Source: an uncultured Syntrophaceae bacterium
GTDB taxonomy: Bacteria > Desulfobacterota > Syntrophia > Syntrophales > UBA2210
Direction: 5' to 3'
DNA length: 64,000 nt
Assembly: GCA_964610735.1 (NCBI GenBank)
Contig: CAZSYH010000005.1
Span: forward strand, 5,912 to 69,911
The translations under genes were made by a program, and so were the position numbers. The first letter of the stretch is position 1, and each line of letters starts with the position of its first letter. Positions 603-47,707 of this stretch are shown one piece after another. The notes under the pieces are model-generated. The model was not told where the DNA came from. It saw nothing but the letters and a program-made list of their open reading frames with translations, and did no database searches.

Positions 603-668
603 GTAATCATATCTGAATAGGAAGCTATACATTACGGCATCTTGGGGTTTGACCGGGAGAATTTATAA

Positions 669-1748: not shown

Positions 1749-1768
1749 TGGGGGACAGTTTTGGGTAA

Positions 1769-4284: not shown

Positions 4285-4287
4285 TCG

Positions 4288-6791: not shown

Positions 6792-6797
6792 AGACCG

Positions 6798-6832
6798 GGG
6801 ATCAGGGATTAGGGATTAGGGATCAGGGATCA
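6798..6832 (+). repeat. five tandem copies of the heptamer GGGATYA (G3-N4 tracts) in the murC-murB spacer
   Basis: Read directly: gggatca gggatta gggatta gggatca gggatca. It lies between the murC stop (6791) and the murB ATG (6839). Confidence 0.9.
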
Positions 6833-6838
6833 GGACGG

Positions 6839-8637: not shown

Positions 8638-8656
8638 TGTCGGAGAGGATGGATGG

Positions 8657-9883: not shown

Positions 9884-9900
9884 GAAGGGAGGGTATTAAC

Positions 9901-22336: not shown

Positions 22337-23121
22337 GCCGTCTTTTCCCTGTCGTGGAGAGTAAGTATCCTCAGAATCAGAAAGAGTGTCAGGCATATGA
22401 AAACCAGCCATACCGCCACAGGTTGAGAGTATTTAAGTCCAAAGGCCTCGAATCGCTCGTATATCATGACCGGGGCGATCATGGGGTGGTAGGCGACAAT
22501 TACCACTGCGCCGAACTCGCTTATCGCCCGGGCGGAACACATAACGATTCCTACGAGCATGCTGCGCCACGCGAGGGGGAATGTTATCCTGAAAAAGGTG
22601 CTGAACATGGACGCCCCAAGACTGCGTGATACCTTCTCAAGTCTTGGAGAAATACTCTCGAACCCGCCCTTGACGGCATTTATGTAAAAAGGCATCCCAA
22701 CGAATGTCAGTACCACAACTATGCCGGTTACGCTTCCCATGATACGTATGCCGACCTGGCTGAACAGTTCGCCTAACCAGTGGTTCTTTCCGGCAACGCT
22801 GAGTATCGCTATTCCCACAACGGGGTGAGGGATAACTATAGGCAGGTCGATTATACTCTCTATCAGTTTTTTACCTCTGAAATCACTACGGGCCAGCACA
22901 TAGGCGAGTGGTGTCCCGAAGACAAATGAAATCAGGGCTGCCAGTCCGGCTGTATAAATACTCAGCCAGATCGACCTGACAACATCCTTATCTTTTATGG
23001 TTTCCTTCAGCATCGCAAAAGATGGCGCTGTCATCATCTCGACAAGGGGAAGAAGGATGAACGCCATAATTACGATGCCGCAGGAGACGGTAATCCAGAA
23101 AAATGGTTCTCTTTTTGTCAC
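22333..23121 (-). CDS. wtpB: tungstate/molybdate ABC transporter permease
   Basis: 262-aa protein with 5-6 TM segments and an ABC permease EAA-like loop (SRSLGASMFSTFFRITFPLA). Operon context supports the call. Confidence 0.85.
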   Translation of the reverse strand: MTKREPFFWITVSCGIVIMAFILLPLVEMMTAPSFAMLKETIKDKDVVRSIWLSIYTAGLAALISFVFGTPLAYVLARSDFRGKKLIESIIDLPIVIPHPVVGIAILSVAGKNHWLGELFSQVGIRIMGSVTGIVVVLTFVGMPFYINAVKGGFESISPRLEKVSRSLGASMFSTFFRITFPLAWRSMLVGIVMCSARAISEFGAVVIVAYHPMIAPVMIYERFEAFGLKYSQPVAVWLVFICLTLFLILRILTLHDREKTA

Positions 23122-24111
23122 TTAGTCTTTGACCTCAACCAGTTTTTGCAGTTCTGCCGGGAGGGATTTCTTCATTTCCGCGGTGGGCACCCTGCAGGGT
23201 ATAAAGGGAGGCTGCCCCATGTCCTTCAATATCTGAAGGCCGCCTTTTGGATCAAGCATGTATTCCAGAAAAGCTATGGCCGCTTCTGGGTTAGGTGCGT
23301 CTTTGATCAGGGTTACACCATACGTACATGAGATCCCCTTGATGATCATTGTGGTTCCCGGTTTCGTACCGGTAACCTCTACAAAGGACTGTTCATATAC
23401 AGGATCGTACTTGTAATTTCCAAGATTAATTTCATCAGGAAGGACAATATATTTCAGGCCATGCTGAACGGCGACTGATAGATATTCCCAGGCGTAGTCC
23501 ATATTCCCGGTCTGGAGCAGTGATATCAACTCCACCGATTTGGGGCGTACATTTTCCTCGGGGCGGTTTGCAATCAATTGTTTGTAGAGGCCGGGTTTAT
23601 TCAGCGCCTTTTCCGCGAGCTGCATTACCATGAGAGAACGATATCCGCAGGGATCGAGATTCGGATCGGAATGCCCCCATACGACATCCTTCTTCTGGAG
23701 GATTTGATACCAGTTGTCCGCGTTTACCGTGTCGGCATAAGCGCTTTTGTCGGTGTAACAGAGGACGAGCTGATTGGTAGCGAAGCGGATATTACAGTTC
23801 GCATAACCGGGTATGAGTAGTTTGTCTATCACTTTGTAATCCGCCGATGCCATGATGTCGCAGGGTTTGCCTATATCCGTTATCTTTCGCGCGCAATTTT
23901 GGCTTCCGGCAGCCTCACGCTGAAGATCGACACCGGGATATTTGGCCTCGAATGCCTTCTCCATGGCCGCGAATGGGACAGAAAGGCTGCCTGCGTGAAA
24001 CATGATCAGCTTACCGGAAGGACCGGCAAACGCGAATGTCGAGAAAAGCACAACTGTTGCACATAATAAGAGCACAACGACAGGTCTTAATAAACTCCTC
24101 TTTTTCATCAT
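23122..24111 (-). CDS. wtpA: periplasmic tungstate/molybdate-binding protein (WtpA/ModA type)
   Basis: Signal peptide, then [10 protein letters not shown]...REAAGS...ASADY motifs characteristic of WtpA-type oxyanion binders. The start is at ATG 24111, after AAGGAG. Confidence 0.75.
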
Positions 24112-24210
24112 AAACTCCTTCTTTTGATTTATTTTTGTTTCTGGCAACGGTAAACGGGCAACCATATCTTACGTGGCACACCTACCATATTTGTTATTCC
24201 ACATCAATAT

Positions 24211-24296: not shown

Positions 24297-25175
24297 ATGG
24301 ATAAATTGCTTACGACAAAGGAACTGGCCGGATTTCTGAGACTGAATGAGAAGAAGGTATATCAACTCGTAAAGGAAGGGAATATTCCCCATGTGCGGAT
24401 TGCCGGCAAGTGGCTCTTCCCGGAAAGGCATGTCACGAGATGGATAGATGAAAATGTGCAGAGGGAAAGAGATATCCTGATTGTGGGAAGCAATGATGTC
24501 CTTATGGAAAGACTTGTGCTTCTCTATTCCCAGGAAAATTTTCCGGGGTCCGTGGCTTTCTATTCGTCAATGGGCAGTTCCAGGGGTGTGCACGCTCTCT
24601 CTCTGAAAAAAGGGCAGGTATGCTGTACTCATCTTCTGGATACGGAGACAGGAGAATATAATCTTCCCTTTCTCGACAGAGTTCTCCCGGGACAGAGATA
24701 TGTAGTTGTTAACCTGTGGCGCAGGAAACAGGGGCTGATTGTGAAGAAAGGCAATCCCATGGGACTTCGAGGACTGGAAGACGTTATAGAGAAGAAGGCG
24801 AGATTCATAAACAGGAACGAAGGGTCCGGCACACATGTCCTTCTGGAATATTTTCTGAAAGAGAAGGGTTTGGACAAAAGAGATATCACCGGTTTTAATG
24901 AAGAAGTCGACAGCCATCTTGATGTGGCCCTCAAGGTTTTTTTCGGTGAGGCGGATGTGGGGTTAGGTATAGAGTATGTTACGTACCCCCTGGGTCTGGA
25001 TTTTCTGCCGCTCAAGGAGGAGATGTTTGACCTTGTTATTCCCGTAGAACTGTGGTCCACGAGCGTCATAAAAGGGTTCATGAATTACATAGACCCGGTC
25101 AGGATAAACAACCTGTCCAAAAATCTCCCCGGCTACAACCTGAAAGATACAGGAAAGATCAGATTTGAGAATTGA
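24297..25175 (+). CDS. TunR-family-like regulator: excisionase-type HTH fused to a periplasmic-binding-protein-like oxyanion domain
   Basis: N-terminal LLTTKELAGFLRLNEKKVYQLVKEGNIPHVRIAGKWLF (HTH_17-like) plus a roughly 230-aa PBP-like domain. It is divergent from the wtp operon. Confidence 0.7.
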   Translation: MDKLLTTKELAGFLRLNEKKVYQLVKEGNIPHVRIAGKWLFPERHVTRWIDENVQRERDILIVGSNDVLMERLVLLYSQENFPGSVAFYSSMGSSRGVHALSLKKGQVCCTHLLDTETGEYNLPFLDRVLPGQRYVVVNLWRRKQGLIVKKGNPMGLRGLEDVIEKKARFINRNEGSGTHVLLEYFLKEKGLDKRDITGFNEEVDSHLDVALKVFFGEADVGLGIEYVTYPLGLDFLPLKEEMFDLVIPVELWSTSVIKGFMNYIDPVRINNLSKNLPGYNLKDTGKIRFEN

Positions 25176-34052: not shown

Positions 34053-34081
34053 TTGACAAAATATTTTTTGATATGTATCGT
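34053..34081 (+). promoter_or_regulatory. candidate sigma70 promoter upstream of the riboswitch-like leader
   Basis: TTGACA at 34053-34058, 17-bp spacer, TATCGT at 34076-34081. Confidence 0.35.
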
Positions 34082-34094
34082 GCTAGTTAAAGCA

Positions 34095-34205
34095 GAGGTA
34101 ACAGGCCTCCGAGTGTAACCGCCTAAAGGTTTTTGCCAATGGCATTACACCGAAGGGTTTTCCCGGAAACGGGGAAGCCTCCCGTGTTTGGAAAGAAGGC
34201 TGAAC
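34095..34205 (+). promoter_or_regulatory. Moco/Tuco (moaA-motif) riboswitch candidate
   Basis: GGCCUCCGAG ... CACCGAAGGG ... GNRA hairpin CCCG-GAAA-CGGG ... GCCUCCCGUGUUUGGAAAGAAGG. The 3' block nearly matches the E. coli moaA leader (GCCUCCCGUAUCUGGAAAGG) as I recall it. Helices GUGUAA/UUACAC and UGCC/GGCA can form. Confidence 0.6.
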
Positions 34206-34715
34206 TTTCCATGACTGTTTGTATAATATCCGCAATAGGGGATAATACGATGGTTAATTCACGGGCGCTTCTAAACAACACCTATTCTCCTTATTTTACC
34301 CCGTATACATTTATATCTCTTATCTTGCCTTGTGGATTACTGTCTTTAAACAATACATTCTCCAAAGAAAGCATAACGGCGGAGTGTTGTCGTAGCAGTA
34401 TGCTGAGCCATTGTAAGATCAAGGTGATCAAGTGTCCATCTGAATCTTTTTGACGTTTTACCGACTTACTGTCCAGAAAGTAAGTGCGGAAAAACAGAAG
34501 GGAGGTGTCAAATTACAATCCGGAGCAGCGAAGCCTCAATCTCAAAGGTAAAAGGCTTCAAGCTCGCATTTTCGAATCAGGTGAATGGCGGGGTTAGGTG
34601 TTAATCTCCTGATATTTACAGCTATTAGCCTTTCACCATAAGCATCAACCTCTTCGTAATAAAACGAAGTTGTTGATAATAAAGACTAACAAACTATCAG
34701 GATGGAGGTTATCCC

Positions 34716-35432
34716 ATGGAAACAGAAGAGAAGAAATATCCTGAGGTTCTTCAGAGAGAGACATCCCGTCGTGGATTTCTCAAGGGAGCTGCTGTAGCGG
34801 CGGGAGGCGCCGTTGCGCTGGCAACAATTGGTGTCATAAAACCCGCTGCTGTCAAGGCCGCTAACCCGGCACCGCCTCCCAAGATGATCAAGCATCTGTT
34901 TGTCGAACGTCAGAACTGTACAGGATGCCGGGGATGTGAATTTGCATGTTCCCTGTTCCACGAAGGAGTTGTCAGGCCTGAAGCTGCGAGAGTACATGTC
35001 AACAAGTATAAAGGTATCATCGATATCCCGGTAATTTGCTGGCATTGCGAAGATGCACCCTGTATTGCAGCGTGTCCCGTTGAGCCTACGGCTATCTACA
35101 AGGATGAAAAAACGAACGGCATCCTCTTGAATAAGGATACGTGTCTCGGTGCCAAGTGCAGTAAATGTGTGGAGGCATGCCCGGCACAGTTCCTGAGGTT
35201 GCATCCCGATACAGGACACCCTCTGACATGTGACCTTTGCGGTGGCGACCCGGAATGCGTGAAAGCATGCCTGGCACAATCGGGAAATCCCCAAGGGCCC
35301 TGTATTATGGGAGACAAACTCGGTTTCGGTGTGAACCTGGCATATCGCGATGTAACACCGGAGGAAGCTGCTAAGGACATGACTGTCAACTTCTTCTATC
35401 CAAATGAAACCGGGGAAAGGAGGGCTATATAA
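34716..35432 (+). CDS. Tat-signal 4x[4Fe-4S] ferredoxin subunit (NrfC/DmsB-like)
   Basis: Twin-arginine motif TSRRGFLKG, an h-region and AVKA-A cleavage site, and four Cys cluster motifs (CTGCRGCEFAC, CWHCEDAPCIAACP, CLGAKCSKCVEACP, CDLCGGDPECVKAC). Confidence 0.85.
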   Translation: METEEKKYPEVLQRETSRRGFLKGAAVAAGGAVALATIGVIKPAAVKAANPAPPPKMIKHLFVERQNCTGCRGCEFACSLFHEGVVRPEAARVHVNKYKGIIDIPVICWHCEDAPCIAACPVEPTAIYKDEKTNGILLNKDTCLGAKCSKCVEACPAQFLRLHPDTGHPLTCDLCGGDPECVKACLAQSGNPQGPCIMGDKLGFGVNLAYRDVTPEEAAKDMTVNFFYPNETGERRAI

Positions 35433-37237
35433 TGGCAGCACCACGAGGAGGAAATTTTGGAAAGGTTCTGGAAATCGATTTATCAAAAAAAACCTTTAAA
35501 ACGCGTACCGTGCCGGAGGAGATATATCAGCAATTTCTTGGTGGGGCGGGCATGGGGGATTACTTTCTTCTGCACGAGTATAAAGCCCATCAGGACCCCC
35601 TTGCTGAAAACAGCTTCCTGTATCTCGGGGCGGGCCCACTGGATGGAACGTATTGTCCGTCCACTCGAATGAGCGTCGTCCACATGAGTCCGTACACAAA
35701 AAGGCTCAGTCATGCCGAAGTGGGGGCTCATATAGGCGCCGAGATTAAGTGGGCCGGCTGGGACGGCATCTATATCCTGGGAAAATCGAAAAAGCCGGTA
35801 TGGCTCTATATCCGGAACGACAAAGTGGAGTTCAGAGATGCCAGTAACTTATGGGGCAAGGATACCGCTACAACGGAAGATATGATTGTAGAGGAATTGA
35901 AGGATCCCCGGGTCAGGGTCGCCTGTATCGGTCCCGCTGGTGAGAATGAAGTCCCGTATTCCTGTCTTATAGTAGAGCGTTTCAGGGCTGCCGCCAGGAC
36001 GAGCACCGGCGCGCTCATGGGAAACAAGAAATTAAAGGCTATTGCTATCAAGGGAAGCGGGTATGTTCCCGCAGTTGACAGCGATAAATTCATCAAAGCG
36101 GCCAAGGCAGCGAAGCAGTATGCCGTTGACAATGAAGGCTGGCAAGGCATCAAACGATGGGGCACTGCCGGTCTGCTTGAGCTGAAGAACTGGGGCACGG
36201 GATCACTCGTTACGAAAAATTATCAGACCACCTGGTTCCCGGACATTGAATACATCGGTGCCGAGGAGGCAAACCGTCGTTTCTGGAAAAGGCATGTGGC
36301 CTGTACGCACTGCCCCGTTCACTGTCAGAAACTTGGTGTTATTCGAGGTGGCAAGTACAGTGGCCTCATAGCTGAGGGGCCCGAATATGAAACCGGCGGC
36401 CTTTTGGGCAGCAATCTCGACATTTCTGAGTTTGATGGCATGATGGCCGCGATTGAACTGTGTGATGCCCTTGGCCTCGATGCCATTTCAACCGGCGGAT
36501 GTATCGGTTTTGCCATGGAATGCGTCCAGAAAGGTGTTCTCTCGAAGGCTGATCTTGACGGCATTGATCTCGAATGGGGCAACGCGGATGGGGTTGTCGA
36601 GATGGTGAAAAAGATCGCTTACAAGAACGGGAAAGCGGGAAAGCTGCTCTCTAAAGGCGTTGTTGCCATGTCACAGGAAATAGGCCACGGTTCCGAGAAA
36701 TGGGCCGTTCATACAAAGGGCAAAGAGATGGCTGCTCATGACCCGCGGGGCGATAAACCGAGGGGTGTCAGTTATGCCATGGGCCAGTGCGGCGGTGACC
36801 ATCATGAATCCAACAGCCCCGCTGGCCAGGCCCAGCGATGTATCCACAATTCGCTTGTCTGCTGTTCATTTGTCGGCGGGTACTGGTCAATGGGTATGTT
36901 CACCGATATGCTGAACCCGCTGTGTGGGTGGAGTATATCGGAAGATGATATGATGAAAACAGGCAAACGAATCCGAACTCTGGAGCGTTGCTTTGATGTC
37001 CGTGAGGGTATCAGCCGGAAGGATGATATCCTGCCGTACCGTATGACAAACGAAGCACTGCCGGAGGGACCGAAGAAAGGAGCGATTTTTACCGAGGCCG
37101 ATACAAAGAAGATGCAGGAAGATTATTATGCGTTCTTCGGATGGGATAGCAACGGTGTCCCGACGGAGAAGGCCTTGAATGATCTTGGACTCGCATTTCT
37201 TATTGACGATATCAAAGCGGCTAAGAAAAATTTGTAA
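35432..37237 (+). CDS. aor: tungsten-type aldehyde:ferredoxin oxidoreductase family protein
   Basis: 601 aa with an AFOR_N-type N-terminus (GKVLEIDLS...FLGGAGMG), CxxCxxxC (CTHCPVHC), GPEYET, and pterin-binding motifs (CDALGLDAIS, SLVCCSF). There is no signal peptide. TAATG coupling links it to the upstream Tat ferredoxin. Confidence 0.92.
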   Translation: MAAPRGGNFGKVLEIDLSKKTFKTRTVPEEIYQQFLGGAGMGDYFLLHEYKAHQDPLAENSFLYLGAGPLDGTYCPSTRMSVVHMSPYTKRLSHAEVGAHIGAEIKWAGWDGIYILGKSKKPVWLYIRNDKVEFRDASNLWGKDTATTEDMIVEELKDPRVRVACIGPAGENEVPYSCLIVERFRAAARTSTGALMGNKKLKAIAIKGSGYVPAVDSDKFIKAAKAAKQYAVDNEGWQGIKRWGTAGLLELKNWGTGSLVTKNYQTTWFPDIEYIGAEEANRRFWKRHVACTHCPVHCQKLGVIRGGKYSGLIAEGPEYETGGLLGSNLDISEFDGMMAAIELCDALGLDAISTGGCIGFAMECVQKGVLSKADLDGIDLEWGNADGVVEMVKKIAYKNGKAGKLLSKGVVAMSQEIGHGSEKWAVHTKGKEMAAHDPRGDKPRGVSYAMGQCGGDHHESNSPAGQAQRCIHNSLVCCSFVGGYWSMGMFTDMLNPLCGWSISEDDMMKTGKRIRTLERCFDVREGISRKDDILPYRMTNEALPEGPKKGAIFTEADTKKMQEDYYAFFGWDSNGVPTEKALNDLGLAFLIDDIKAAKKNL

Positions 37238-37523: not shown

Positions 37524-38210
37524 ATGAAACTGTCGCGGCGAGATGTACTTCATATAATCATCAGCGGTGCCATATCGGGAATCGTTTTTATCTTCTTCAA
37601 GGTTTCTGGAGCAAAGGCATTGCCCCGTCCGCCGGGGTCACTCATTGAAAACGAATTTCTGAAGTACTGCACCCGATGCTACAGATGCATAGACGTGTGC
37701 CCTGCCGACGCGCTTAAACCTGCCGGCATTCTTGACGGCATAACCAACCTGGGCACACCGGTTCTCGATTGGAAGAAGTGTATCATGTGTATGGAATGTG
37801 TCAGAATATGTCCCACCGAAGCTATTAAGAAAGTCCCCAAAAAAGAGATTGATATCGGAAACGCGGTGATCGAGCCCGACACATGCCTCTCCTGGCAGAA
37901 AACGAGCAGATGCAAAAATTGTTACAAGGCCTGCAAGTATGATGCTATCAAGCTGGAAAAGGGGCGATTTCCCGTTGTCATAGAGGAAAACTGTACGGGT
38001 TGCGGCGCCTGTGAGCAAAGGTGCCCGACCGACCCTAAGTCTATTGTTGTACATTACGACAAGGTTAAAAGATTTGATCCTTCCGGAAATCGATTTGTTT
38101 TACAACTTGAAGATCGAGTAGGGCCTTATGATTTTCCTCAGTCTGATTTCAAAACATGGTTTGCAGGCAGGATGGAGAAGCTGGCCAGACACTATGGGAT
38201 TATAAAATAA
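37524..38210 (+). CDS. NapG/MauM-like ferredoxin with twin-arginine N-terminus
   Basis: SRRDVL plus a hydrophobic segment, then LPRPPGSLIENEFLKYCTRCYRCIDVCP, which parallels E. coli NapG [28 protein letters not shown] as recalled. Four Fe-S motifs are present. Confidence 0.8.
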   Translation: MKLSRRDVLHIIISGAISGIVFIFFKVSGAKALPRPPGSLIENEFLKYCTRCYRCIDVCPADALKPAGILDGITNLGTPVLDWKKCIMCMECVRICPTEAIKKVPKKEIDIGNAVIEPDTCLSWQKTSRCKNCYKACKYDAIKLEKGRFPVVIEENCTGCGACEQRCPTDPKSIVVHYDKVKRFDPSGNRFVLQLEDRVGPYDFPQSDFKTWFAGRMEKLARHYGIIK

Positions 38211-38269: not shown

Positions 38270-39529
38270 ATGACTGGTTTTGAACATATTCAAAATACAG
38301 GAAGAGATGCTGTACTGGTTGTCGGTGGCGGTGTAGCGGGCATTACGGCTTCTCTGGATCTGGCGGATGCGGGTCAGTCCGTTCATCTGGTAGAAAACGA
38401 CAGTCATCTCGGTGGTCAGGTCTCAAAACTGGATAAACTCTATCCGACCGATCACTGTGCCTTCTGTCCCCTCTGGACAGATGTCAAAAAGTGTATGGAC
38501 CATCCTTTAATTACTGTTCATACGCTCTCTCACATAAAGGAATTGACGCAAGAAAACGGTAGCTATTCAGCCCTCATCCTGAAACATCCTCATTACATAG
38601 ATGACAAGAAATGTATTTTCTGCGGACGATGTGTGGATGAGTGTCCGGACAACGCTATACATTCCGGCTGGGAACATTTATATCCACCCACTTTCGTGAT
38701 TGATGAAGCTTTATGTACACAATGTGGCAACTGCACGAAGGTATGCCCTTCGGGTGCTATTAATATGGAGTTGAAAGAAGAAGAAATAAATCTTCTCGTG
38801 AGGGATGTCATATGGGCAACCGGTTTTAAAGAGGCCGATCTCAGTCACCTCAAGGAATATGGAAGCGGCACCCACCCTGATATTATGACGTCCATGGAAT
38901 TTGAAGAGTGGACCGCAGAAGCAGGAACCAACAGGGGAAATATCATCAAAAGATCGGATGGCGCGGTACCGGCAAACATCGCTTTTATACAGTGCGCCGG
39001 AGCGAGGGACCTCAGGATGATTCCATCCTGCTCTGCCGTATGCTGCATGCATGCCTTCAAACAGGCCGAGTGGGTGAAAAGAAGAAATCAAAGGATCGAT
39101 TGTTATATCTTTTATACCGATTTAAGAACGGTGGGGCGCGATTATTACAGATATTCCCTGAAGAATTTTGAAGGTGCTGATGTCAAACTTGTCAGGGGAC
39201 GACCGGGATTGATCCATCCCATGCCCGGCGGTAATGGGATCGCGGTACAATTTGAAAATACGATAACACAAAAAAGAGAGATCAGAAAATTTGACATTGT
39301 GATCCTGAACGGGAACATTCAGCCTTCCCTTATTCAGCTCTGTCCGGCACAATCTGAAAAGAAAGTGGCTCCTCAGATAGACAAAGAAGGGTTCGTTATT
39401 GAAGAGTCAGGCGAAACATCTGCTTTTGCATGCGGCTTCGGTCTTGAACCGGCAGATGTTGCCGAGTCCGTAATCCAGGCGTCCGCTGCCGCAATGAGAG
39501 TTATGAATAAAGAATCTGACCAACGGTAG
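38270..39529 (+). CDS. HdrA/QmoA-like FAD-dependent oxidoreductase with inserted 2x[4Fe-4S] ferredoxin domain
   Basis: VVGGGVAGITASLDLADAG dinucleotide fold, DHCAFCP motif, and CIFCGRCVDECP plus CTQCGNCTKVCP. The start is set at ATG 38270. Confidence 0.8.
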   Translation: MTGFEHIQNTGRDAVLVVGGGVAGITASLDLADAGQSVHLVENDSHLGGQVSKLDKLYPTDHCAFCPLWTDVKKCMDHPLITVHTLSHIKELTQENGSYSALILKHPHYIDDKKCIFCGRCVDECPDNAIHSGWEHLYPPTFVIDEALCTQCGNCTKVCPSGAINMELKEEEINLLVRDVIWATGFKEADLSHLKEYGSGTHPDIMTSMEFEEWTAEAGTNRGNIIKRSDGAVPANIAFIQCAGARDLRMIPSCSAVCCMHAFKQAEWVKRRNQRIDCYIFYTDLRTVGRDYYRYSLKNFEGADVKLVRGRPGLIHPMPGGNGIAVQFENTITQKREIRKFDIVILNGNIQPSLIQLCPAQSEKKVAPQIDKEGFVIEESGETSAFACGFGLEPADVAESVIQASAAAMRVMNKESDQR

Positions 39530-39537
39530 AGTGAAAC

Positions 39538-41232
39538 ATGGCAAACATATCTGTTTTTTTATGCAAATGTTTAGGAGAAATTGATCACATAATCGATTTT
39601 GGTCTTCTCCGTGAGGAATTATCAAAAAATTCTTCTGTTGCCCTCATATCGACCGTTGATTCCCTCTGTCTCGAAACGGATATAGAGAAAACTATTTCTC
39701 TGATAAAGGAAACTGACGCTGATAAGGTATTAATCGCCGCCTGTTCTATTTTGTCGAGAGGCAATCTTGTCGTTGACTGTCTTATCAGAGCGGGGGTCGA
39801 GAGGCATAAGATCGCTCTGGTGGATATCAGGGAAGGATGCGCCTGGATTCATGGCGACAATCCTGAAGACGCCTCAAAAAAAGCAAAAGACCTCATAAAT
39901 ATGGGGATCGCTGCTCTTCAGCATAAAGAAATGTCCGACGACATGTCCGTCACCGTTAATCCGAGTGCCATGATAATAGGTGCAGGCCCCGCAGGCCTTG
40001 CCGCCGCCATATCCGTAGCAAAAATGGGATATGAGGTTAGTATCCTCGAAAGATCAAAGGACCCCGGAGGGATGCTTCGATTCATCTCCCGATGTTATCC
40101 AGGCAACGACGATGCATCGAACAAACTGGAACCATATATTAAAGAGATTGAGAATAATCCCCTCATTACCTTCTATCCGCAATCAAAAATCGCTTCTATT
40201 GAGGGAAACACCGGTAATTTCACCGTTCACTTTTCATCTCAGGAAAAAGATAGTTCCATCCATTCAGGAGTTATCATCATCGCGACAGGCGCAAAGATAT
40301 TTTTCCCGACCGGTCTTTATGGCTATGGAGAAATCAAGAATGTGATCACACAGATGGAGTTTGAGATACAAATCCTGAATGGATCATTAGAAACAAAAAA
40401 AACCGTATTTATACAATGTGTTGGCGCAAGAGATAGAAAAAGACCGTATTGTTCAACTATTTGTTGTCCAATCAGTCTTAAGAATGCATCGAGGATCGCT
40501 GAAGATGTCCCGGGCGGGTCAGTATTTATTCTCCACCGGGGGATCATGACGCCGGGGAGCACCCCGGAGAAATATTACAGGGATACACTCTCAAGTGGTG
40601 TACAGTTTATTCGTTTTGAAGAGGAACAACCACCTCGGATCATAGGCAGTGACCATGTTGAATTCGTTGAGGTGTATGATGCGATAACCGGGATTACAAG
40701 GAAGATTGAGACTGATCTGGTGGTCTTAAGTACTCCCCTTATCCCAAATAATGACAATGCGCGACTGGCTCAGATGCTGGGTATTGAAGTTGACCGTTAT
40801 GGGTTTTTCTCGGAGGTCTATCCGATGCATCCCCTGGAGACAAAAACGGATGGCATCTTCATCTGCGGCTCGGCGAGATGGCCCGTTTCTTCAGATCATT
40901 CGATAATACAGGGGAAAGCGGCAGCCATGAAGGCGGTCTCGTATTTAAAACAGAGTAAAATTGCCGCATCAACACTCAGCCGGGTCCCCGGTCCGAAAGC
41001 AGGTCATGCCTGTGTTAATGTCGATGCATGCACGGGGTGTGGTAACTGTGTTGCTGTCTGTCCCTTCGACGCCTGTCAGCTTGAAAAGCTTGAGGGCAAG
41101 TACGTAAGTACGGTGAACCTCATGAAATGCAAGACCTGTGGTAACTGCGTTCCATTATGCCCCAACGGGAGCATACAGATTCCCGAACATAACTACCGCA
41201 TGGTGGGGGGAATGATACAGAGGGCATTTTAG
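39538..41232 (+). CDS. HdrA/QmoB-like FAD-dependent oxidoreductase with C-terminal 2x[4Fe-4S] domain
   Basis: IIGAGPAGLAAAISVAKMG fold, CVGARD...YCSTICC HdrA-type motif, and C-terminal CTGCGNCVAVCP and CKTCGNCVPLCP. Confidence 0.8.
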   Translation: MANISVFLCKCLGEIDHIIDFGLLREELSKNSSVALISTVDSLCLETDIEKTISLIKETDADKVLIAACSILSRGNLVVDCLIRAGVERHKIALVDIREGCAWIHGDNPEDASKKAKDLINMGIAALQHKEMSDDMSVTVNPSAMIIGAGPAGLAAAISVAKMGYEVSILERSKDPGGMLRFISRCYPGNDDASNKLEPYIKEIENNPLITFYPQSKIASIEGNTGNFTVHFSSQEKDSSIHSGVIIIATGAKIFFPTGLYGYGEIKNVITQMEFEIQILNGSLETKKTVFIQCVGARDRKRPYCSTICCPISLKNASRIAEDVPGGSVFILHRGIMTPGSTPEKYYRDTLSSGVQFIRFEEEQPPRIIGSDHVEFVEVYDAITGITRKIETDLVVLSTPLIPNNDNARLAQMLGIEVDRYGFFSEVYPMHPLETKTDGIFICGSARWPVSSDHSIIQGKAAAMKAVSYLKQSKIAASTLSRVPGPKAGHACVNVDACTGCGNCVAVCPFDACQLEKLEGKYVSTVNLMKCKTCGNCVPLCPNGSIQIPEHNYRMVGGMIQRAF

Positions 41233-41303: not shown

Positions 41304-41744
41304 ATGCATACGGTTAAAATGAAAAATCCGAAGATCCTGATTTTTGCTTGCAAATGGTGCGGGCTTATCGGAGCGGATGCCGCCGGGAAGAAGAGGATAT
41401 CTCTCCCCTCTCAGTTTCGTGTCATTCCGGTGGAATGCGCATCTCTTGTTGAACCCGATGCCGTCCTGAGAGCGCTGGCCGGGGGGATTGATGGCATAGC
41501 TGTTCTGGGATGTCACATAGGAGGGTGTCGGTATAATAATGCGAATCACACTGCCATCAAGAGAATGGAACTTCTAAAAGATCTGCTGGATACAACCGGC
41601 ATCGGACGCAGCAGGCTTTTGCTCAGTTTTGGGACCGCACATGAAGATTATCAATTTGAAGAGATAATAAAGAGTTTTTTTGACGAGGTATCGTTACTGA
41701 CCCCCCTTGATCCCTGGTTGTCGTCGTTTGGAGTGATAAGCTGA
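41304..41744 (+). CDS. mvhD: MvhD/FlpD-like [2Fe-2S] hydrogenase delta-subunit-family protein
   Basis: ILIFACKWCG...IPVECASLV...GIAVLGCHIGGCRY pattern typical of MvhD. Confidence 0.82.
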   Translation: MHTVKMKNPKILIFACKWCGLIGADAAGKKRISLPSQFRVIPVECASLVEPDAVLRALAGGIDGIAVLGCHIGGCRYNNANHTAIKRMELLKDLLDTTGIGRSRLLLSFGTAHEDYQFEEIIKSFFDEVSLLTPLDPWLSSFGVIS

Positions 41745-41746
41745 TT

Positions 41747-42598
41747 ATGCTCGAGAAAACAAAAAACATAGCAAGACAGATTCTTGAAGAGAAAAAGGCT
41801 GGTGGTATCCTGGGCCTCATGAAAGGGCAATGGAATATCATCCAGCCCCATATTTTTGAAGCACCTGCGGAATTAGACGCCCTTGTTCTTGAACCGAAGT
41901 GGTTGCTGGCAAAGCTCGCTATGGGAATATTACGTTCCTCACCGGAAAATTACAAACTGGCTGTAATCTGCCGTGGATGTGATGAAAGGGCACTGATTGA
42001 ACTGATAAAGAGAAATCAGATAGAGAAGGAAAGCCTCCTTACGATTGGAATTGCCTGCAGTCAGGAACAGGCAGCCCTATGCCTTTGCGACAGGCCGTAC
42101 CCCACGAAACTCGACGCAGGGGAGAAGGTTAAAGGGGTAGATCCTTTCCAGGACGAAAGAGTCCGGGAGTTTTTGATCGGTAATGACAAACAAAGGATGG
42201 AGAGGTGGGCTGATATGCTGAAGAGGTGTATCAAGTGTTACGGCTGCCGCAATTCCTGCCCTATCTGCATCTGTGAACCCTGCAAACTGGAAGACGATGT
42301 CTGGGTGAAAAGGGGTGTTGTGCCGGCGGAAGCAATAACCTTTCATCTTATACGTGCCTTCCACCTGTCGGATACATGTGTGGCCTGTGGGGCCTGTCAG
42401 GAAGCCTGTCCCGTTAATATCCCGCTCCTCTATCTGCAGTTCTCGATGCGCAAAACAATCCAGGAATACTACGGGTACGAGGCGGGACTTGATCTTGAGA
42501 TAAAATCACCAGTTCTTTCCGGTGTTTTCGAAGGACCCGATACGGACAGGGAATATCCTGCATGGGTAAACTCGATGAGGGAACGAGATGGGATCTAA
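41747..42598 (+). CDS. 2x[4Fe-4S] protein (AsrA/HydB/FdhB-like electron-transfer subunit)
   Basis: CIKCYGCRNSCPICIC and CVACGACQEACP motifs. It overlaps the fdhA start by 11 nt. The precise family was not recognised. Confidence 0.6.
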   Translation: MLEKTKNIARQILEEKKAGGILGLMKGQWNIIQPHIFEAPAELDALVLEPKWLLAKLAMGILRSSPENYKLAVICRGCDERALIELIKRNQIEKESLLTIGIACSQEQAALCLCDRPYPTKLDAGEKVKGVDPFQDERVREFLIGNDKQRMERWADMLKRCIKCYGCRNSCPICICEPCKLEDDVWVKRGVVPAEAITFHLIRAFHLSDTCVACGACQEACPVNIPLLYLQFSMRKTIQEYYGYEAGLDLEIKSPVLSGVFEGPDTDREYPAWVNSMRERDGI

Positions 42599-44630
42599 AT
42601 TTGTCAAGACCATTTGTCCTTACTGTGGAACAGGCTGTGGCCTTATAATAAAGATCATAGATGGTGTGGCCGTTGCCACCTATCCCGACAGGGAACACCC
42701 TGTCTCTCGAGGTAGTTTGTGCATAAAGGGATGGTCTGCTCACGAGTTTATCAACCATCCCGACCGCTTGACATCGCCTCTTTTGAGAAAGGGTGACACG
42801 TTTCAGGAAATCCCATGGGATGAAGCCATACCGATGGCGGCCTTGAAATTGCGTGAGACTGCCGCACGATATGGCGGCGATGCCATTGGTGGTCTTTCTT
42901 CCGCCAAGTGTACCAATGAAGAAAATTACCTTTTCCAGAAACTGATACGCATGGCATTTAAAACGAACAACGTGGATCACTGTGCACGTCTGTGCCATGC
43001 CCCGACTACCGTTGCAATGGTACAGGCCCTTGGCAGCGGGGCAATGACGAATTCTATTTCGGATCTGGCCGGAGCTGAGTGTATCATTGCCATCGGTTCC
43101 AACACAGCGGAGAGTCACCCGATCATCATGGGGGGAATTTATAAGGCCACTGACAGGGGTGCGACACTCATCGTTGTCGATCCCCGTGAAACGGCAGTCA
43201 CCCGGAATGCAAAGATTCACCTCCGGATAAATCCGGGAACGGATATACCCCTTTTGTGCGGTATGATGAGACACATTATTGATGAAGGACTGCACAACGA
43301 GGAATTCATCAGGGACCGTATGGAAGGATTTAAAGATCTGAATACATTCCTCCAGTCGTGGCCTGTCAAACGGGCTGCCGACGAATGCGGTATCGATGAA
43401 GAGCTCATCAGAAATGTGGCTACGATTTATGCAAAAGCAAAAGAATCTGCCGTAATCTATTGCATGGGTATCACTCAACATGCCTGTGGAACAGCCAACG
43501 TCCTCGCCATTTGTGACCTTGCCATGTTGTGCGGTCATGTTGGAACAGAACATTCCGGCATATATCCCCTTCGGGGACAGAATAATGTTCAGGGCGCCTG
43601 CGATATGGGTGCCCTGCCCAATGTCTATCCCGGATACCAGAGTGTCAGCGATTCGGCAATTCAGGACAAATTTCAAAAGGCCTGGGGGACTGAACTCTCC
43701 GATAAGCCGGGCCTTACCGTTACGGAAATCATCGGCCTCGCGGGGAAGGATATCCGCGCAGCCTATATCATGGCGGAAAATCCCGCATTGAGTGATCCCG
43801 ATACCAACCATGTTTTGGAGTCACTGAAAGCCTTTGATTTTCTCATCGTTCAGGATATTTTTCTCACCGAGACGGCAAAATTCGCACATCTGATATTTCC
43901 CAGCTCCTGTTTTGCCGAGAAGTCCGGGACGTACACCAATACGGAGAGAAGATTTCAGCTCTTGCGAAAGGCAGTCGATCCGCCGGGAAATGCAAAAGAA
44001 GACTTTGCGATTTTATGCCTTTTGGGAAACGCTTTGGGACTTAATTTTTCTTACATCCATCCTGCAGAAGTAATGGAGGAAATCGCGTCTCTGGCCCCGG
44101 CCTACGGCGGTATCCGCTTTGACAGGTTGGAGCTGGAAGGTCTGCAGTGGCCCTGCCCTGATTCAGAGCATCCAGGCACACGGTATCTTCATAAAGACCG
44201 GTTTACGAGAGGCAAAGGACTTTTCGTCATCCCCGAGTATACTCCACCCAGGGAACTACCCGATGATAAGTATCCTTATTATCTAAGTACGGGAAGAATG
44301 TTTGCTCATTATCATACTGGTACAATGACGCGCCGATCACCCTTTCTCAACAGGGAGGTGGAAAAGGCCTATGCCGAGATCAACCCGGAAAATGCTGCTC
44401 ATCTGAACGTAAAAGACGGGGAGAAAATAAAGCTAACAACCCGCAGGGGGAGTATTATAACAACCGCCCGGATAACGAAACGTGTTGCAAAGGACTGTAT
44501 TTTCGCTCCTTTCCACTTTGCCGAGGCACGGGCCAATATGTTGACCAATCCGGTCCTGGATCCCCATTCCAAGATACCGGAATTCAAGGTATGTGCCGCA
44601 GATGTAAGGAAGGAAACAGAGGATGGCTAA
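42588..44630 (+). CDS. fdhA: formate dehydrogenase catalytic subunit (Mo/W-bisPGD, Cys-type, cytoplasmic)
   Basis: N-terminal [4Fe-4S] CPYCGTGC, active-site HCARLCHAPT (Cys-His at the Sec/Cys position), downstream RGQNNVQGA, and no Tat signal. Confidence 0.88.
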   Translation: MGSKFVKTICPYCGTGCGLIIKIIDGVAVATYPDREHPVSRGSLCIKGWSAHEFINHPDRLTSPLLRKGDTFQEIPWDEAIPMAALKLRETAARYGGDAIGGLSSAKCTNEENYLFQKLIRMAFKTNNVDHCARLCHAPTTVAMVQALGSGAMTNSISDLAGAECIIAIGSNTAESHPIIMGGIYKATDRGATLIVVDPRETAVTRNAKIHLRINPGTDIPLLCGMMRHIIDEGLHNEEFIRDRMEGFKDLNTFLQSWPVKRAADECGIDEELIRNVATIYAKAKESAVIYCMGITQHACGTANVLAICDLAMLCGHVGTEHSGIYPLRGQNNVQGACDMGALPNVYPGYQSVSDSAIQDKFQKAWGTELSDKPGLTVTEIIGLAGKDIRAAYIMAENPALSDPDTNHVLESLKAFDFLIVQDIFLTETAKFAHLIFPSSCFAEKSGTYTNTERRFQLLRKAVDPPGNAKEDFAILCLLGNALGLNFSYIHPAEVMEEIASLAPAYGGIRFDRLELEGLQWPCPDSEHPGTRYLHKDRFTRGKGLFVIPEYTPPRELPDDKYPYYLSTGRMFAHYHTGTMTRRSPFLNREVEKAYAEINPENAAHLNVKDGEKIKLTTRRGSIITTARITKRVAKDCIFAPFHFAEARANMLTNPVLDPHSKIPEFKVCAADVRKETEDG

Positions 44631-45084
44631 CGATAACGACAGGATTGCCGAAGCAAGGAGATTTTCCTGCGCATACAGTTGCGTGGAATGTGGCAGGTGC
44701 GTTGCAGTCTGTCCCATGGCAGAGATGTATACAAATTTTTCTATCGAAATGTCACCACGGGGAGTCATTAAGAAAACTCTGGTCGGGAATGACATCATCA
44801 CGGACGAAAATATATGGTATTGTACCGAATGTAATGCCGGTACCGATATTTGTCCACAGGGGGTTAGCTGTCGCGATCTGATTCGAGGTCTCAGGGAAAT
44901 AGCAATCGAAGAAAACATGGTTGAAAATTTAAAATACTGTACCCGTTGCGGCAAACGGTTTTTATCAATTCCCGCAAAAAACTTTGTTTTTGAAAGGTTG
45001 AGAGAGGAACCTCCTAACGTTTTGAACGTTCTCGAACTTTGCCCCTCATGCAGGAGGGAGATGTACATGTTACGTAACACATAG
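44623..45084 (+). CDS. HdrC-like 2x[4Fe-4S] protein with C-terminal zinc-ribbon-like Cys pairs
   Basis: CVECGRCVAVCP and CTECNAGTDICP, then CTRC...CPSC. It overlaps the fdhA stop. Confidence 0.7.
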   Translation: MANDNDRIAEARRFSCAYSCVECGRCVAVCPMAEMYTNFSIEMSPRGVIKKTLVGNDIITDENIWYCTECNAGTDICPQGVSCRDLIRGLREIAIEENMVENLKYCTRCGKRFLSIPAKNFVFERLREEPPNVLNVLELCPSCRREMYMLRNT

Positions 45085-45092
45085 GCAATGTG

Positions 45093-46400
45093 ATGCAGGA
45101 ACAAACAAACGAACAAAATAACATTATCACCCTTGAGGAACTCAGGCCACGCCCGGAAGAGAAGAAAACCTTCTCCGACCACTTTATGCCGCGACTTCAT
45201 CCCGGCATCCTCTTTGATCCTAAAAAATGTACCGGGTGCGGCACCTGCGAGATGGTTTGTTCCTTAAGAAATGTTTCTAAAATAGCCCCCACTTCTGCAA
45301 GCATAAAAGTGCTCAGAGATGAGAACAGTGTCAAGAATTTTGCGATCTTCTGCCAGCATTGCCGCAAGCCTCTGTGCATAGAAGCCTGCCCCACCAGGGC
45401 GATTGAAAAGGGGGAAGACGGGATTGTCCGTATCGACAAACTGTTCTGTGTAGCATGCGGTCTTTGTACGATGGCCTGCCCGGAAGCCGCACCGCTTCAA
45501 GATCCAATAACGGGAGAGATCAATAAATGCGATCTGTGTGAGGGAGATCCACAGTGTGTCAAATATTGCCCGTCAGGAGCCCTTACTTTTACAAAGGGGA
45601 AAAGGATTCGATGGATAAAAGCCTTGCGATGGTCCGTTCAGACTATTTCATTTCTCCTTCTGGTCGTTGCCCTGATTGGAACATTCTGTTCTCTAAAGGC
45701 GGGCGCGCTTAGTTTATCCTGTCCCGCGGGAGTCCTGCAGAATATTGCGTCATCAGGTACCGTCGTGCTCGTCTGGATTCTGTCGGCTTCCCTGATCCTC
45801 GGGTTGACCATACTTGCGGGAAGATTTTTCTGTGGGTGGATCTGCCCCTTCGGCTTTTTTCTCGATCTTGTCGATAAAATTACGCCAAAGAAGATCGGAT
45901 GGCCGTCATTTCTCAAAAGCAGGATGGCAAAGTACGGAATCCTTGCCGGAGCTGTGGGAGGAAGTTGTGCCCTCGGTTTCCAGGCCTTTTGTCCTGTATG
46001 TCCCATAGGTTCAATTTGCCGTTCCTATGGAGCGGCCGGGACCCTTAATGGTGCGAATATGGGAATAGTGGCTGTACTGGGAGGCCTCGAAGTAACAGAA
46101 CGGCGGGTCTGGTGCCGATACTTCTGCCCGGTAGGGGCACTGCTGGCGCTCTTTGCAAAGATCGGTCTGATAAAAATTGTCATCGGCGCAAATCAGTGCA
46201 AGAAGTTTTCCTGTGTTCAATGTGCGGAAGTATGTCCCATGGGAATTATTGACGCGGATAAGTTGCGAGAAGGCATATCACCGGAGATACCGATGACCGA
46301 ATGTATTACATGTATGAGATGCATTGACCGATGCCCTTACGGCGCGGCAAAGATACGGTTCAGGTGGCAAAAGGCGGTGCCGGAGAATGTTGAATTATGA
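45093..46400 (+). CDS. fusion of a DmsB-type poly-[4Fe-4S] ferredoxin domain to a NapH-like integral-membrane Fe-S protein
   Basis: N-terminus carries CTGCGTCEMVC, CQHCRKPLCIEACP, CVACGLCTMACP and CDLCEGDPQCVKYCP. The membrane part carries GRFFCGWICPFG and WCRYFCPVGAL (NapH hallmarks) plus two C-terminal Fe-S motifs. Confidence 0.8.
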   Translation: MQEQTNEQNNIITLEELRPRPEEKKTFSDHFMPRLHPGILFDPKKCTGCGTCEMVCSLRNVSKIAPTSASIKVLRDENSVKNFAIFCQHCRKPLCIEACPTRAIEKGEDGIVRIDKLFCVACGLCTMACPEAAPLQDPITGEINKCDLCEGDPQCVKYCPSGALTFTKGKRIRWIKALRWSVQTISFLLLVVALIGTFCSLKAGALSLSCPAGVLQNIASSGTVVLVWILSASLILGLTILAGRFFCGWICPFGFFLDLVDKITPKKIGWPSFLKSRMAKYGILAGAVGGSCALGFQAFCPVCPIGSICRSYGAAGTLNGANMGIVAVLGGLEVTERRVWCRYFCPVGALLALFAKIGLIKIVIGANQCKKFSCVQCAEVCPMGIIDADKLREGISPEIPMTECITCMRCIDRCPYGAAKIRFRWQKAVPENVEL

Positions 46401-47707
46401 AGCTATTCGATAATTTCTACAACATGAAGGTTGGGATAGTCGACCTCACTCAATTATCCTCAGAGGTAATTCCTCTGGACGAGCAGATTGTCGCGGAAAA
46501 GATCGGCGGAGCAGCAGTAAATGAAGATCTTTTCAGGCAATATAAAGATGATGCTCCTCTGCTCATTGGTGTTGGTCCACTGACGGGCAGCTTTGCCCCC
46601 GCTTCATGCCTTTCGGTTGCAACCTTTTTATCGCCACGATTCGGAAATCTCTGCCACGTTCCTCTTATGATGCGTACCGGCCCCGAGATGAAGTTCTCGG
46701 GCATTGATTTCCTGGTGATCAAGGGAACTGCTTCCTCACCCAAGATATTGCATATAGATAAGGGAGCCATACAGATCTTATCTGCGGAACAGTTCATTGG
46801 CGTTGATATCCCTGAGGGTTTACAGACACTGAAAAAGGAAAGGATTCATTCCCGGTCAATCCTCCTGACAGGCACCGCCGCTGACCACGGGGTCCCGAGT
46901 GCTTCTGTTTCAACAGGCTTTAACGGCAGTTTGGATAAAGCGGGTCTGGCCTTTCTGATGGCCTCAAAAAATCTCAAAGGGGTCATCTTCAATGGAACTG
47001 GTGGCCTTCCCTTCGCCGAAGATAACCTTGAGGATAATGAAACAATTGAAAGAAAGCTTTTCGCGGATGAAGGACATGAGAATAAAGGCTTTCTTTCTAT
47101 GTTGGATAAGATCGGAATCGAAGAGAATCTGAAGGGGGTCATAAAAAAAGCAAAATGGCGGGACATGGCATGCTATCACTGTCCTTCTCCATGTATGAAT
47201 TCTGTCCAGTTTACATGGCACGATCCCCGGAAGAATTCCAGAGTCGAAGATAATATATTACTTTCAGATCATCTGGGATTTCTCGCGCTGGCAAAGAAAG
47301 GGGGGAAAGATGTGTTTCCACTTTCAGAAAGTTGCCTCCGTTTTGGTCTTGACCCAGTTGCCGTTGCGGAGAAATTGCCGGAGAACGGATCATTACTTGA
47401 ATCTCTGAACGCTATAGAAGAGATCTCCGTTACACCGGAAGAACCGAAGATCAAAAGGGAACACCACCAGATCGGAGAGGTTTCAGCTGAAATGCATAAC
47501 CTTTACGGCGGCGGGTTACCACCAATTTTAGCTGAAGAATTGTGGAAGAAACGGGTCCGGCTTTCTATGATTCTGGGTGTATGCCCAATATTTTTACTTC
47601 GTTTCACACAGATTTCGGAACTTGATCTTCTAAAGTTCCTCACAAGCAATGAACATGATCTGAAGTTTTTAGAAAAAAAAGAAATCCAATCTCTCATTAA
47701 AAAATAA
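46397..47707 (+). CDS. shortened AOR-family paralog (436 aa)
   Basis: AFOR_N-like N-domain (IGGAAVN..., VGPLTG). It retains CxxCxxxC (CYHCPSPC) and both pterin-type motifs (CLRFGLDPVAV, ILGVCPIF) in a compressed C-terminal region. An ATGA overlap links it to the preceding gene. Confidence 0.72.
   Translation: MKLFDNFYNMKVGIVDLTQLSSEVIPLDEQIVAEKIGGAAVNEDLFRQYKDDAPLLIGVGPLTGSFAPASCLSVATFLSPRFGNLCHVPLMMRTGPEMKFSGIDFLVIKGTASSPKILHIDKGAIQILSAEQFIGVDIPEGLQTLKKERIHSRSILLTGTAADHGVPSASVSTGFNGSLDKAGLAFLMASKNLKGVIFNGTGGLPFAEDNLEDNETIERKLFADEGHENKGFLSMLDKIGIEENLKGVIKKAKWRDMACYHCPSPCMNSVQFTWHDPRKNSRVEDNILLSDHLGFLALAKKGGKDVFPLSESCLRFGLDPVAVAEKLPENGSLLESLNAIEEISVTPEEPKIKREHHQIGEVSAEMHNLYGGGLPPILAEELWKKRVRLSMILGVCPIFLLRFTQISELDLLKFLTSNEHDLKFLEKKEIQSLIKK

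Follow-up and report, generated by a model that had tools for sequence, protein, structure and literature searches.

Can an enzyme of the aldehyde:ferredoxin oxidoreductase (AOR) family work outside the cytoplasm? We know of no member, those of Class V (discussed below) included, for which this has been shown by experiment. The question is raised by two adjacent genes on the forward strand of a 64,000-nucleotide (nt) stretch of DNA, called the window here, from an uncultured Syntrophaceae bacterium (contig CAZSYH010000005.1, positions 5,912 to 69,911). The first gene (34716..35432) encodes a small iron-sulfur subunit of 238 amino acids (aa) that is predicted to carry a signal for twin-arginine translocation (Tat), and the second (35432..37237) encodes an AOR-family catalytic subunit of 601 aa with no signal peptide. 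They are referred to as WorS and WorL, the small and large subunits of the tungsten-containing oxidoreductases (WORs). An earlier description made from the letters alone (the sequence-only reading) took them for a hitch-hiker pair, in which an AOR leaves the cytoplasm on the signal of its ferredoxin. As far as sequence can tell, this arrangement is supported, with a conserved signal, a partner without one, tight coupling of the two genes and relatives that are obligate WorL-WorS complexes. The identity given to the ferredoxin, the novelty of the location and the two-gene context did not stand. We conclude that WorL is probably carried outside the cytoplasmic membrane by WorS, and we favour, at a rough probability of 0.6, a model in which the exported pair would exchange electrons across the membrane with a formate dehydrogenase/HdrA module that is encoded in the same gene cluster and lies in the cytoplasm.

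The predicted Tat signal and the small subunit

The predicted signal peptide of WorS covers aa 1-48 (34716..34859, forward strand). The N-terminus reads METEEKKYPEVLQRE-TSRRGFLKG-AAVAAGGAVALATIGVI-KPAAVKA up to the predicted cleavage site and continues with ANPAPPPK. Its n-region contains TSRRGFLKG (T16-G24 with R18-R19, at 34761-34787), which matches the S/T-R-R-x-F-L-K consensus, its h-region (G24-I41) consists of 18 uncharged residues, and its c-region, V46-K47-A48 ahead of A49, is an AxA-type cleavage site. The score against the NCBIfam Tat-signal model TIGR01409 is 23.7 bits, above the cut-off of 16.7. A rule-based six-frame scan of the 64 kb found an RR pair with a hydrophobic stretch at only two real open reading frame (ORF) N-termini, those of WorS and of a NapG-like protein of the same cluster.

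For the conservation of the signal, a collection of 5.8 billion proteins was searched and the best 120 homologues, with 50-100% identity, were taken. The motif [ST]RRxFL[KR], the hydrophobic stretch and the Ala-rich c-region are retained in 119 of these 120, and the single exception is a truncated gene call. R18, R19 and F21 are invariant in an alignment of 65 homologues with 51-83% identity. It was also found, in a set of 64 genomic loci that are nearly all metagenome-assembled genomes labelled Desulfobacterota (or 'Deltaproteobacteria'), that every WorL copy with sufficient upstream DNA is directly preceded by a WorS gene with an RR motif (63 of 63). Retention in nearly all homologues, together with this position upstream of every family AOR gene, argues that the signal is not a product of chance, and the twin-arginine signal described in the sequence-only reading is borne out.

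The signal is clearly set apart from the rest of the protein. In an AlphaFold2 model built with 65 homologues, aa 1-51 are unstructured, with a predicted local distance difference test (pLDDT) value below 50, and the core from about residue 57 has pLDDT 70-90. The solved WorS subunits begin at about aa 57 of the window protein, and in signal-less WorS relatives, which are 47-51% identical within the matched core, nothing precedes the first cluster motif. Judged by these comparisons, WorS is a small subunit with an acquired N-terminal extension of about 55 residues, and the extension is the predicted Tat signal. In a survey of mature WorS against 1.84 billion representatives, a Tat-type extension was flagged in 17 of 149 newly returned top representatives by a simple pattern screen, which gave at least one false positive and appears to have missed one case (P0146). 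Since the flagged extensions occur in several unrelated-looking lineages, Tat-targeting of WorS-like proteins probably arose more than once.

The mature part has a Fer4_11 domain and, as had been claimed, four Fe-S motifs: 16 Cys, invariant in the 65-sequence alignment, fall in four CxxCxxCxxxC-type groups, enough for four [4Fe-4S] clusters. The proposed likeness to NrfC/HybA-type subunits has to be replaced by a WorS identity. The best PDB matches, which cover aa 57-191 only, are the small subunit of WOR5 (104 bits, E = 1e-28), AorA (87 bits) and 9mqx_E (86 bits), with BamC at 45 bits, whereas the scores against the NrfC and HybA models are 49.5 bits (cut-off 378) and 39.7 bits (cut-off 263). 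Foldseek places the WorS model closest to 6x1o_B, 9mqx_G/E and 8c0z_C, with a target-normalised template-modelling (TM) score of about 0.70, and next to the periplasmic FdhB subunits 6sdr_B and 1h0h_B.

The structures 6x1o, 8c0z and 9mqx are all of large-small subunit complexes. Among the relatives of mature WorS, P0152 (897 aa) looks like a natural fusion of the two subunits, with an AOR-like N-terminus seen and the WorS domain C-terminal, and P0215 (820 aa), with the WorS domain N-terminal, is a candidate fusion from its length and domain position only. Such fusions give Rosetta-stone support for the association of the two subunits.

The catalytic subunit and its place in the family

The coordinates of the pair are secure, as products of 238 aa and 601 aa were also predicted by an independent metagenome gene caller on four further contigs with an identical AOR. 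At the junction (ATA TAA TGG), the WorS stop codon TAA (35430-35432) and the WorL start codon ATG (35432-35434) share 1 nt at 35432, so the TAATG overlap noted earlier is confirmed, and a GGAGG lies about 9 nt 5' of both starts. The junction ranges from -17 to +5 nt in 42 of 43 pairs examined. The family pair is duplicated in tandem in L043, L051, L056 and L064. In three Desulfobacteraceae loci (L014, 6435-9072; L022, 6593-9164; L040, 6520-9097) a second, divergent pair of a Tat-signal WorS and a 646-aa AOR stands directly 5' of the family pair. The ferredoxin of this second pair has an RR motif followed by a lipobox-like ...IGC, and its AOR has an identity of 31% with the window WorL and of 27% with YdhV.

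WorL has both AOR domains at full length (AFOR_N, PF02730, 220 bits; AFOR_C, PF01314, 348 bits) and the cofactor motifs C291xxC294xxxC298 with C478, EYE318, DALGLD345 and GGDH454. The four Cys do not vary among 47 orthologues, in which the conservation of most motif positions is 89-100%. An N-terminal extension is impossible because 35432 is the first start codon past the upstream in-frame stop, and residue 7 aligns with residue 3 of the solved AORs, leaving no room for a signal of its own. The claim of an AOR with all cofactor motifs and no signal is thereby upheld. The PDB matches are 9mqx_D (351 bits), PfAOR (347 bits), WOR5 (298 bits) and BamB (194 bits), and by sequence WorL is a classical AOR. 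Its cofactor is predicted to be a tungsten bis-pyranopterin and its reaction aldehyde oxidation, in the context of the tungstate transporter and riboswitch described in the next section.

The closest sequences and folds for both subunits are thus those of WOR5/ASOR (6x1o), AorABC (8c0z) and the bifurcating AOR 9mqx, which represent Classes II, III and IV. They share with the window pair the four-cluster WorS, the cofactor motifs and the architecture of the heterodimer. Unlike it, they have a WorS that starts at residue 57 of the window protein without a signal, and they work in the cytoplasm, with ferredoxin and/or NAD(P). For the export of a folded metal-cofactor subunit together with an Fe-S partner on one signal, the parallels are [NiFe] hydrogenase 2 (HybO/HybC) and the W-FdhAB of Desulfovibrio. 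The hydrogenase bears this signal on its Fe-S subunit, as the window pair does, whereas FdhAB bears it on the catalytic subunit; the catalytic families of both are unrelated to AOR.

The idea of a location outside the cytoplasm is not new for the AOR family, contrary to what the sequence-only reading had supposed. A periplasmic subunit was predicted for E. coli YdhYVWXUT by Ravcheev and Thiele in 2014 (PMC4257093). In 2026, Class V WORs were described as a WorL with a WorS that carries a Tat signal or a transmembrane helix; they make up more than 10% of the family and are stated to occur only in clade 41 (PMC13328260). The first Class V protein to be purified, CsWOR41L of Cetobacterium somerae, was without activity (PMC13328260). 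The step from a Tat-signal WorS to a periplasmic enzyme, which we take here, follows the same logic as that used for Class V in the literature.

The window pair resembles YdhV/YdhY and CsWOR41 of Class V in that WorL is joined by a WorS which has a Tat signal or membrane helix at its N-terminus, and in a predicted periplasmic location, with putative membrane association and further subunits. It differs in the large subunit. The window WorL, with 601 aa, is 24% identical to the 700-aa YdhV (135 bits, with many gaps) and lacks its extra 100 or so residues, compared with about 350 bits to the classical AORs. It differs also in its partners, which are NapG/NapH-like, HdrA, MvhD and FdhA proteins where Class V has YdhWXUT, cytochrome b or flavin subunits. 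Orthology to YdhV and YdhY was considered, as the best NCBIfam matches are the models of these two proteins, and rejected since the direct identities are only 24% and 28%. E. coli YdhY itself (L065, 9852-10478) has no canonical RR signal; its N-terminus, TRLEFLR...LLSLLGC, is a single-Arg, lipobox-like variant, and a clear TRRKF signal is found on E. coli YdhX. The pair has the Tat-signal WorS that marks Class V, and by pairwise scores its WorL appears to fall outside clade 41. By sequence, this lineage fits the operational definition of Class V and not the phylogenetic one, with entirely different partners, and the published restriction of Class V to clade 41 is then incomplete.

An eleven-gene neighbourhood

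The sequence-only reading treated the pair as a stand-alone unit of two genes. When we clustered the neighbouring genes of every locus and compared the window proteins with the loci in a tblastn matrix, it proved to head a conserved cluster of 11 genes, in the order WorS, WorL, NapG-like, HdrA1, HdrA2, MvhD, FdhB-like, FdhA, HdrC-like, WorS::NapH-like fusion and truncated AOR. Of the 36 loci that extend far enough downstream, 35 have this block; they come from four orders of Desulfobacterota, reach down to a WorL identity of 53% and include Desulfovibrionaceae and Syntrophobacteraceae, where WorL has 53-56% identity. The genes upstream of the pair are not conserved among the loci. The 11-gene context changes the likely physiology of the pair.

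All genes of the cluster are on the forward strand. The NapG/MauM-like four-cluster ferredoxin (37524..38210) has a Tat-type signal at aa 1-32, with the N-terminus MKLSRRDVL-HIIISGAISGIVFIFF-KVSGAKA before the cleavage site and LPRPPG after it, and the signal is conserved in 49 of 49 orthologues. It scores 90 bits against the NapG model NF007012, below the cut-off, and is 33% identical to E. coli NapG, with the post-signal RPPG aligned. Two HdrA-like flavoproteins follow. The first (38270..39529) is given 419 aa by the independent gene caller, although an ORF open from 38156 is the longest, and scores 231-285 bits against HdrA2/HdrA models, below the cut-off. The second (39538..41232; 564 aa) scores 357 bits against NF040770 and 243-253 bits against the PDB HdrA proteins 9sfi_A and 5odc_A. 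Next are an MvhD-like [2Fe-2S] protein (41304..41744; FlpD, PF02662, 121 bits) and an FdhB-like Fe-S protein of 283 aa (41747..42598), which corresponds to the Fe-S part at the C-terminus of the FdhB found in the Fdh-Hdr-Fmd complex of methanogens (7bkb_E, 119 bits). The 680-aa protein at 42588..44630 is a formate dehydrogenase alpha subunit (FdhA) of the cytoplasmic, Cys type without a signal; it scores 821 bits against TIGR01591 (cut-off 666) and has Molybdop_Fe4S4, Molybdopterin and Molydop_binding domains. It is followed by an HdrC-like Fe-S protein of 153 aa (44623..45084), with 44-55 bits against HdrC models, below the cut-off.

The tenth gene (45090..46400) encodes a fusion of 436 aa. 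Its WorS-like four-cluster domain (aa 39-173) has AorA (98 bits) and 9mqx_E (88 bits) as best PDB matches, and aa 193-428 form a NapH-like four-helix membrane domain with a C-terminal 2x[4Fe-4S] part (NapH model NF007013, 105 bits), which shows 29% identity with E. coli NapH, both CxxxCP motifs falling in register. From averaged hydropathy over 31 orthologues, conserved transmembrane peaks and loop K+R counts of 6/0/7/1/3, four helices with both termini inside are predicted, and this positive-inside topology places the fused WorS-like domain in the cytoplasm. Five Cys at aa 200, 211, 301, 304 and 310, in two predicted periplasmic loops, are invariant, and there is none at the aligned positions of E. 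coli NapH. These Cys might bind a cluster on the outer side and so help electrons to cross the membrane. The last gene (46397..47707), syntenic in most loci, encodes a truncated AOR-like protein of 436 aa with AFOR_N only (114 bits). Domain 1 and the CxxCxxxC motif are kept, the pterin-binding domains 2 and 3 are missing, and PDB AORs align with aa ~50-210 only. Side by side, the fusion and the truncated AOR look like a degenerate cytoplasmic WorS-WorL pair that mirrors the exported one. A second WorS-like domain and a second AOR-like protein inside the cluster tie it to AOR biology.

When compared with known systems, the NapG- and NapH-like proteins share with NapGH, NosGH and MauMN the combination of a Tat-signal, NapG-type four-cluster ferredoxin and a four-helix, NapH-type protein with CxxxCP motifs and a cytoplasmic 2x[4Fe-4S] part. 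They differ in scoring below the equivalog cut-offs, in having no Nap, Nos or Mau enzyme nearby, and in the NapH part, which is fused to a WorS-like domain and has five invariant Cys in its predicted periplasmic loops. The methanogen complex FdhAB-MvhD-HdrABC(-Fmd) (7bkb) and BamB-I are similar in that FdhA, FdhB-like, HdrA and MvhD are encoded with a tungsten-pterin enzyme and a polyferredoxin-type feed. Unlike 7bkb, the cluster lacks HdrB (CCG domains) as well as the F420-binding part of FdhB, and its two HdrA proteins are separate; unlike both, its tungsten enzyme is predicted on the opposite side of the membrane. A class II benzoyl-CoA reductase of the BamBC type was suggested by the Hdr-like neighbours and rejected, as WorL has only 194 bits to BamB, WorS 45 bits to BamC, and BamGHI-like genes are absent from the cluster. 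There is also no NuoE- or NuoF-like protein among the 11 genes, the 680-aa protein being the formate dehydrogenase alpha subunit, which sets the pair apart from the Class IV WorLSABC enzymes.

A limited literature search found no paper that describes the 11-gene cluster. The papers on the D. autotrophicum genome and on the S. fumaroxidans proteome contain no description of it, and the supplementary tables of PMC13328260 have no entry for Syntrophus, Smithella, Syntrophaceae, Syntrophales, Desulfobacterium or IPR006311. The AOR-WorS lineage and its 11-gene, membrane-spanning neighbourhood thus appear to be undescribed.

Upstream of the pair there is a molybdenum/tungsten cofactor (Moco/Tuco) riboswitch aptamer without the P3 stem (34095..34214, forward strand; RF01055, 70.7 bits, gathering score 36; model positions ~60-74 deleted). 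The P3-less variant was reportedly linked by Regulski and colleagues, in 2008, to tungsten-cofactor genes. The aptamer is unusually far, about 500 nt, from the WorS start codon. It is present upstream in L003 and L011 and not in L019, L022, L038 and L046. A sigma-70-like promoter at 34053-34081 (TTGACA-17-TATCGT) is a consensus match only. The non-coding spacer of about 500 nt between riboswitch and WorS (34215-34715), in which 34652-34669 could form a weak terminator-like hairpin, is conserved in L002 and L003, relatives too similar for this conservation to be informative.

About 10 kb upstream, a tungstate ABC transporter WtpABC is encoded on the reverse strand (21299-24165; WtpA 452 bits, cut-off 355; WtpC 386 bits, below its cut-off of 440). 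Adjoining it, a divergent gene (24297-25175, forward strand) encodes an excisionase-type helix-turn-helix (HTH) protein with a domain like the C-terminal part of MoeA, probably the regulator of WtpABC. Transporter and HTH protein together support the use of tungsten by this organism. Far from the pair and unrelated to it, a run of about ten co-directional ORFs at ~15-11070 (forward strand) is presumably a dcw (cell-division and cell-wall) cluster, possibly with mur/mraY/ftsW/ftsQAZ genes, as we judge from the first residues of the translations.

Proposed export and wiring, and their alternatives

From the sequence features and their conservation, the homology to solved WorL-WorS complexes and the synteny, we infer the export of WorS and with it the co-export of WorL. 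In the favoured model, WorS would fold and take up its four [4Fe-4S] clusters in the cytoplasm and bind cofactor-loaded WorL there, and the heterodimer would cross the membrane via Tat on the WorS signal, as HybO carries HybC. Periplasmic WorLS would oxidise an aldehyde or reduce an acid, the direction of electron flow and the substrate being assumed only, and would swap electrons with the co-encoded NapG-like ferredoxin. The latter may in turn dock on the NapH-like membrane domain of the 436-aa fusion, which presupposes contacts from WorS through NapG to NapH. On the other side of the membrane, the WorS-like and 2x[4Fe-4S] domains of the fusion would link to the FdhA/FdhB-like/HdrA/HdrA/MvhD/HdrC-like module. 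The cluster could in this way couple a low-potential acid/aldehyde pair in the periplasm to formate/CO2 in the cytoplasm, with the HdrA flavin bifurcating or confurcating electrons and quinone or membrane potential possibly acting as the third partner. As the AOR couple would lie on the far side of the membrane, the reaction would be linked to the membrane potential and possibly to a quinone at the NapH-like site. In the methanogen complex, the HdrA flavin bifurcates formate electrons and the low-potential branch leads via a polyferredoxin to the tungsten-pterin enzyme; by analogy, such a branch may here end at, or start from, the acid/aldehyde couple of the AOR.

Several results weigh against this model. 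WorS scores 20.3 bits against the Pfam model TAT_signal (PF10518), just below the gathering score of 22.7, and the 64-kb window, searched for tatA-like genes, contains no tatABC and no Tat chaperone. To our knowledge, all biochemically characterised close relatives (PfAOR, WOR5, AorABC and the bifurcating AOR 9mqx) are cytoplasmic, and at least 7 of the 11 cluster genes encode cytoplasmic-type proteins. NapH-type proteins are, as far as we know, haem-free, and electron transfer across the membrane through NapH is not an established mechanism. No source of a periplasmic aldehyde or acid substrate is evident. The gap between WorL and NapG is the only long junction of the cluster (287 nt here, median 147 nt, the other junctions being about 0), so the pair may be a separate transcript, and one locus, L063, has the pair without the cluster. 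Lastly, the only large subunit of Class V to have been purified was tried with 46 aldehydes and oxidised none (PMC13328260).

The relatives and neighbours just named suggest a different account, which we consider unlikely, in which all components form a wholly cytoplasmic, bifurcating AOR-FDH-Hdr complex (compare BamB-I and Class IV WorLSABC) and the RR N-termini are vestigial or serve as handles for chaperones or assembly. HdrA, MvhD, FdhA and FdhB-like proteins, with which the pair is syntenic, are cytoplasmic in every solved complex, and the best PDB match of WorL is itself the cytoplasmic, bifurcating 9mqx. Precedents for an RR motif without export exist in E. coli NapF and NarG, which carry such motifs and stay in the cytoplasm. 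However, a vestigial motif of that kind is not expected to retain all three regions of a signal, and WorS and the NapG-like protein alike keep the n-, h- and c-region across 50-100% identity, so this explanation of the motif is disfavoured. In addition, the NuoEFG-like WorABC/BamGHI subunits are absent, and a co-conserved, NapH-like integral membrane protein would be pointless in a soluble complex. The NapGH, NosGH and MauMN modules all serve periplasmic enzymes, and the co-conservation, in 35 of 36 judgeable loci, of a NapG-like Tat ferredoxin with a NapH-like membrane protein favours export.

If export is accepted, the pair need not belong with the genes behind it. WorLS could be an independent, soluble periplasmic enzyme that feeds a cytochrome c pool, like the W-FdhAB of Desulfovibrio, with the downstream cluster a separate matter. 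The long WorL-NapG junction, the solitary pair of L063 and the Foldseek matches of WorS to the periplasmic FdhB subunits would suit such an enzyme. Adjacency and gene order in all but one of the 36 loci, across four orders and to 53% identity, would nevertheless be hard to maintain for unlinked functions, and the cluster holds its own WorS-like domain and AOR-like protein; we consider a separate enzyme improbable. The remaining account, in which only the ferredoxin is exported, for another periplasmic partner, and the AOR stays behind as a cytoplasmic, single-subunit, ferredoxin-dependent enzyme of Class I, agrees with the lack of a signal on WorL and with the many Class I AORs that function without a small subunit (PMC13328260). 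We regard it as very improbable, because the Tat-signal WorS gene stands directly 5' of all 63 AOR copies with overlapping or near-overlapping junctions, and the mature ferredoxin is a specific WorS homologue whose solved relatives are bound to WorL.

A bolder reading goes beyond the favoured model of export and wiring. All 11 genes might encode one membrane-spanning, flavin-based bifurcating or confurcating machine, in which case Tat-exported AORs would have arisen a second time, independently, outside clade 41. Its periplasmic AOR (acid/aldehyde, about -580 mV) would be wired, through the NapG-like protein and the WorS::NapH-like fusion, to the cytoplasmic FdhAB-like/HdrA/MvhD proteins (CO2/formate), with quinone and/or membrane potential as the third partner. 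We put this forward tentatively, as a possibility that we ourselves doubt.

As the simple claim of an exported AOR is already published, the interest lies in the origin outside clade 41 and in the link through a NapGH-like conduit to Fdh and Hdr proteins, which is a matter for specialists in anaerobic energy metabolism and is directly testable. The lineage offers a clean test case, with a textbook signal, a classical AOR that has solved relatives of known chemistry, and partners that are always the same. The proposed wiring, if true, would be the first flavin-based bifurcating Hdr/Fdh module joined to a periplasmic tungsten enzyme, and it would bear on the balance of low-potential electrons, formate and membrane energy in syntrophic and sulfate-reducing Desulfobacterota. 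Should the 11 genes indeed form a single machine, uncultured Syntrophales and other Desulfobacterota would have a new route to very low redox potentials across the membrane.

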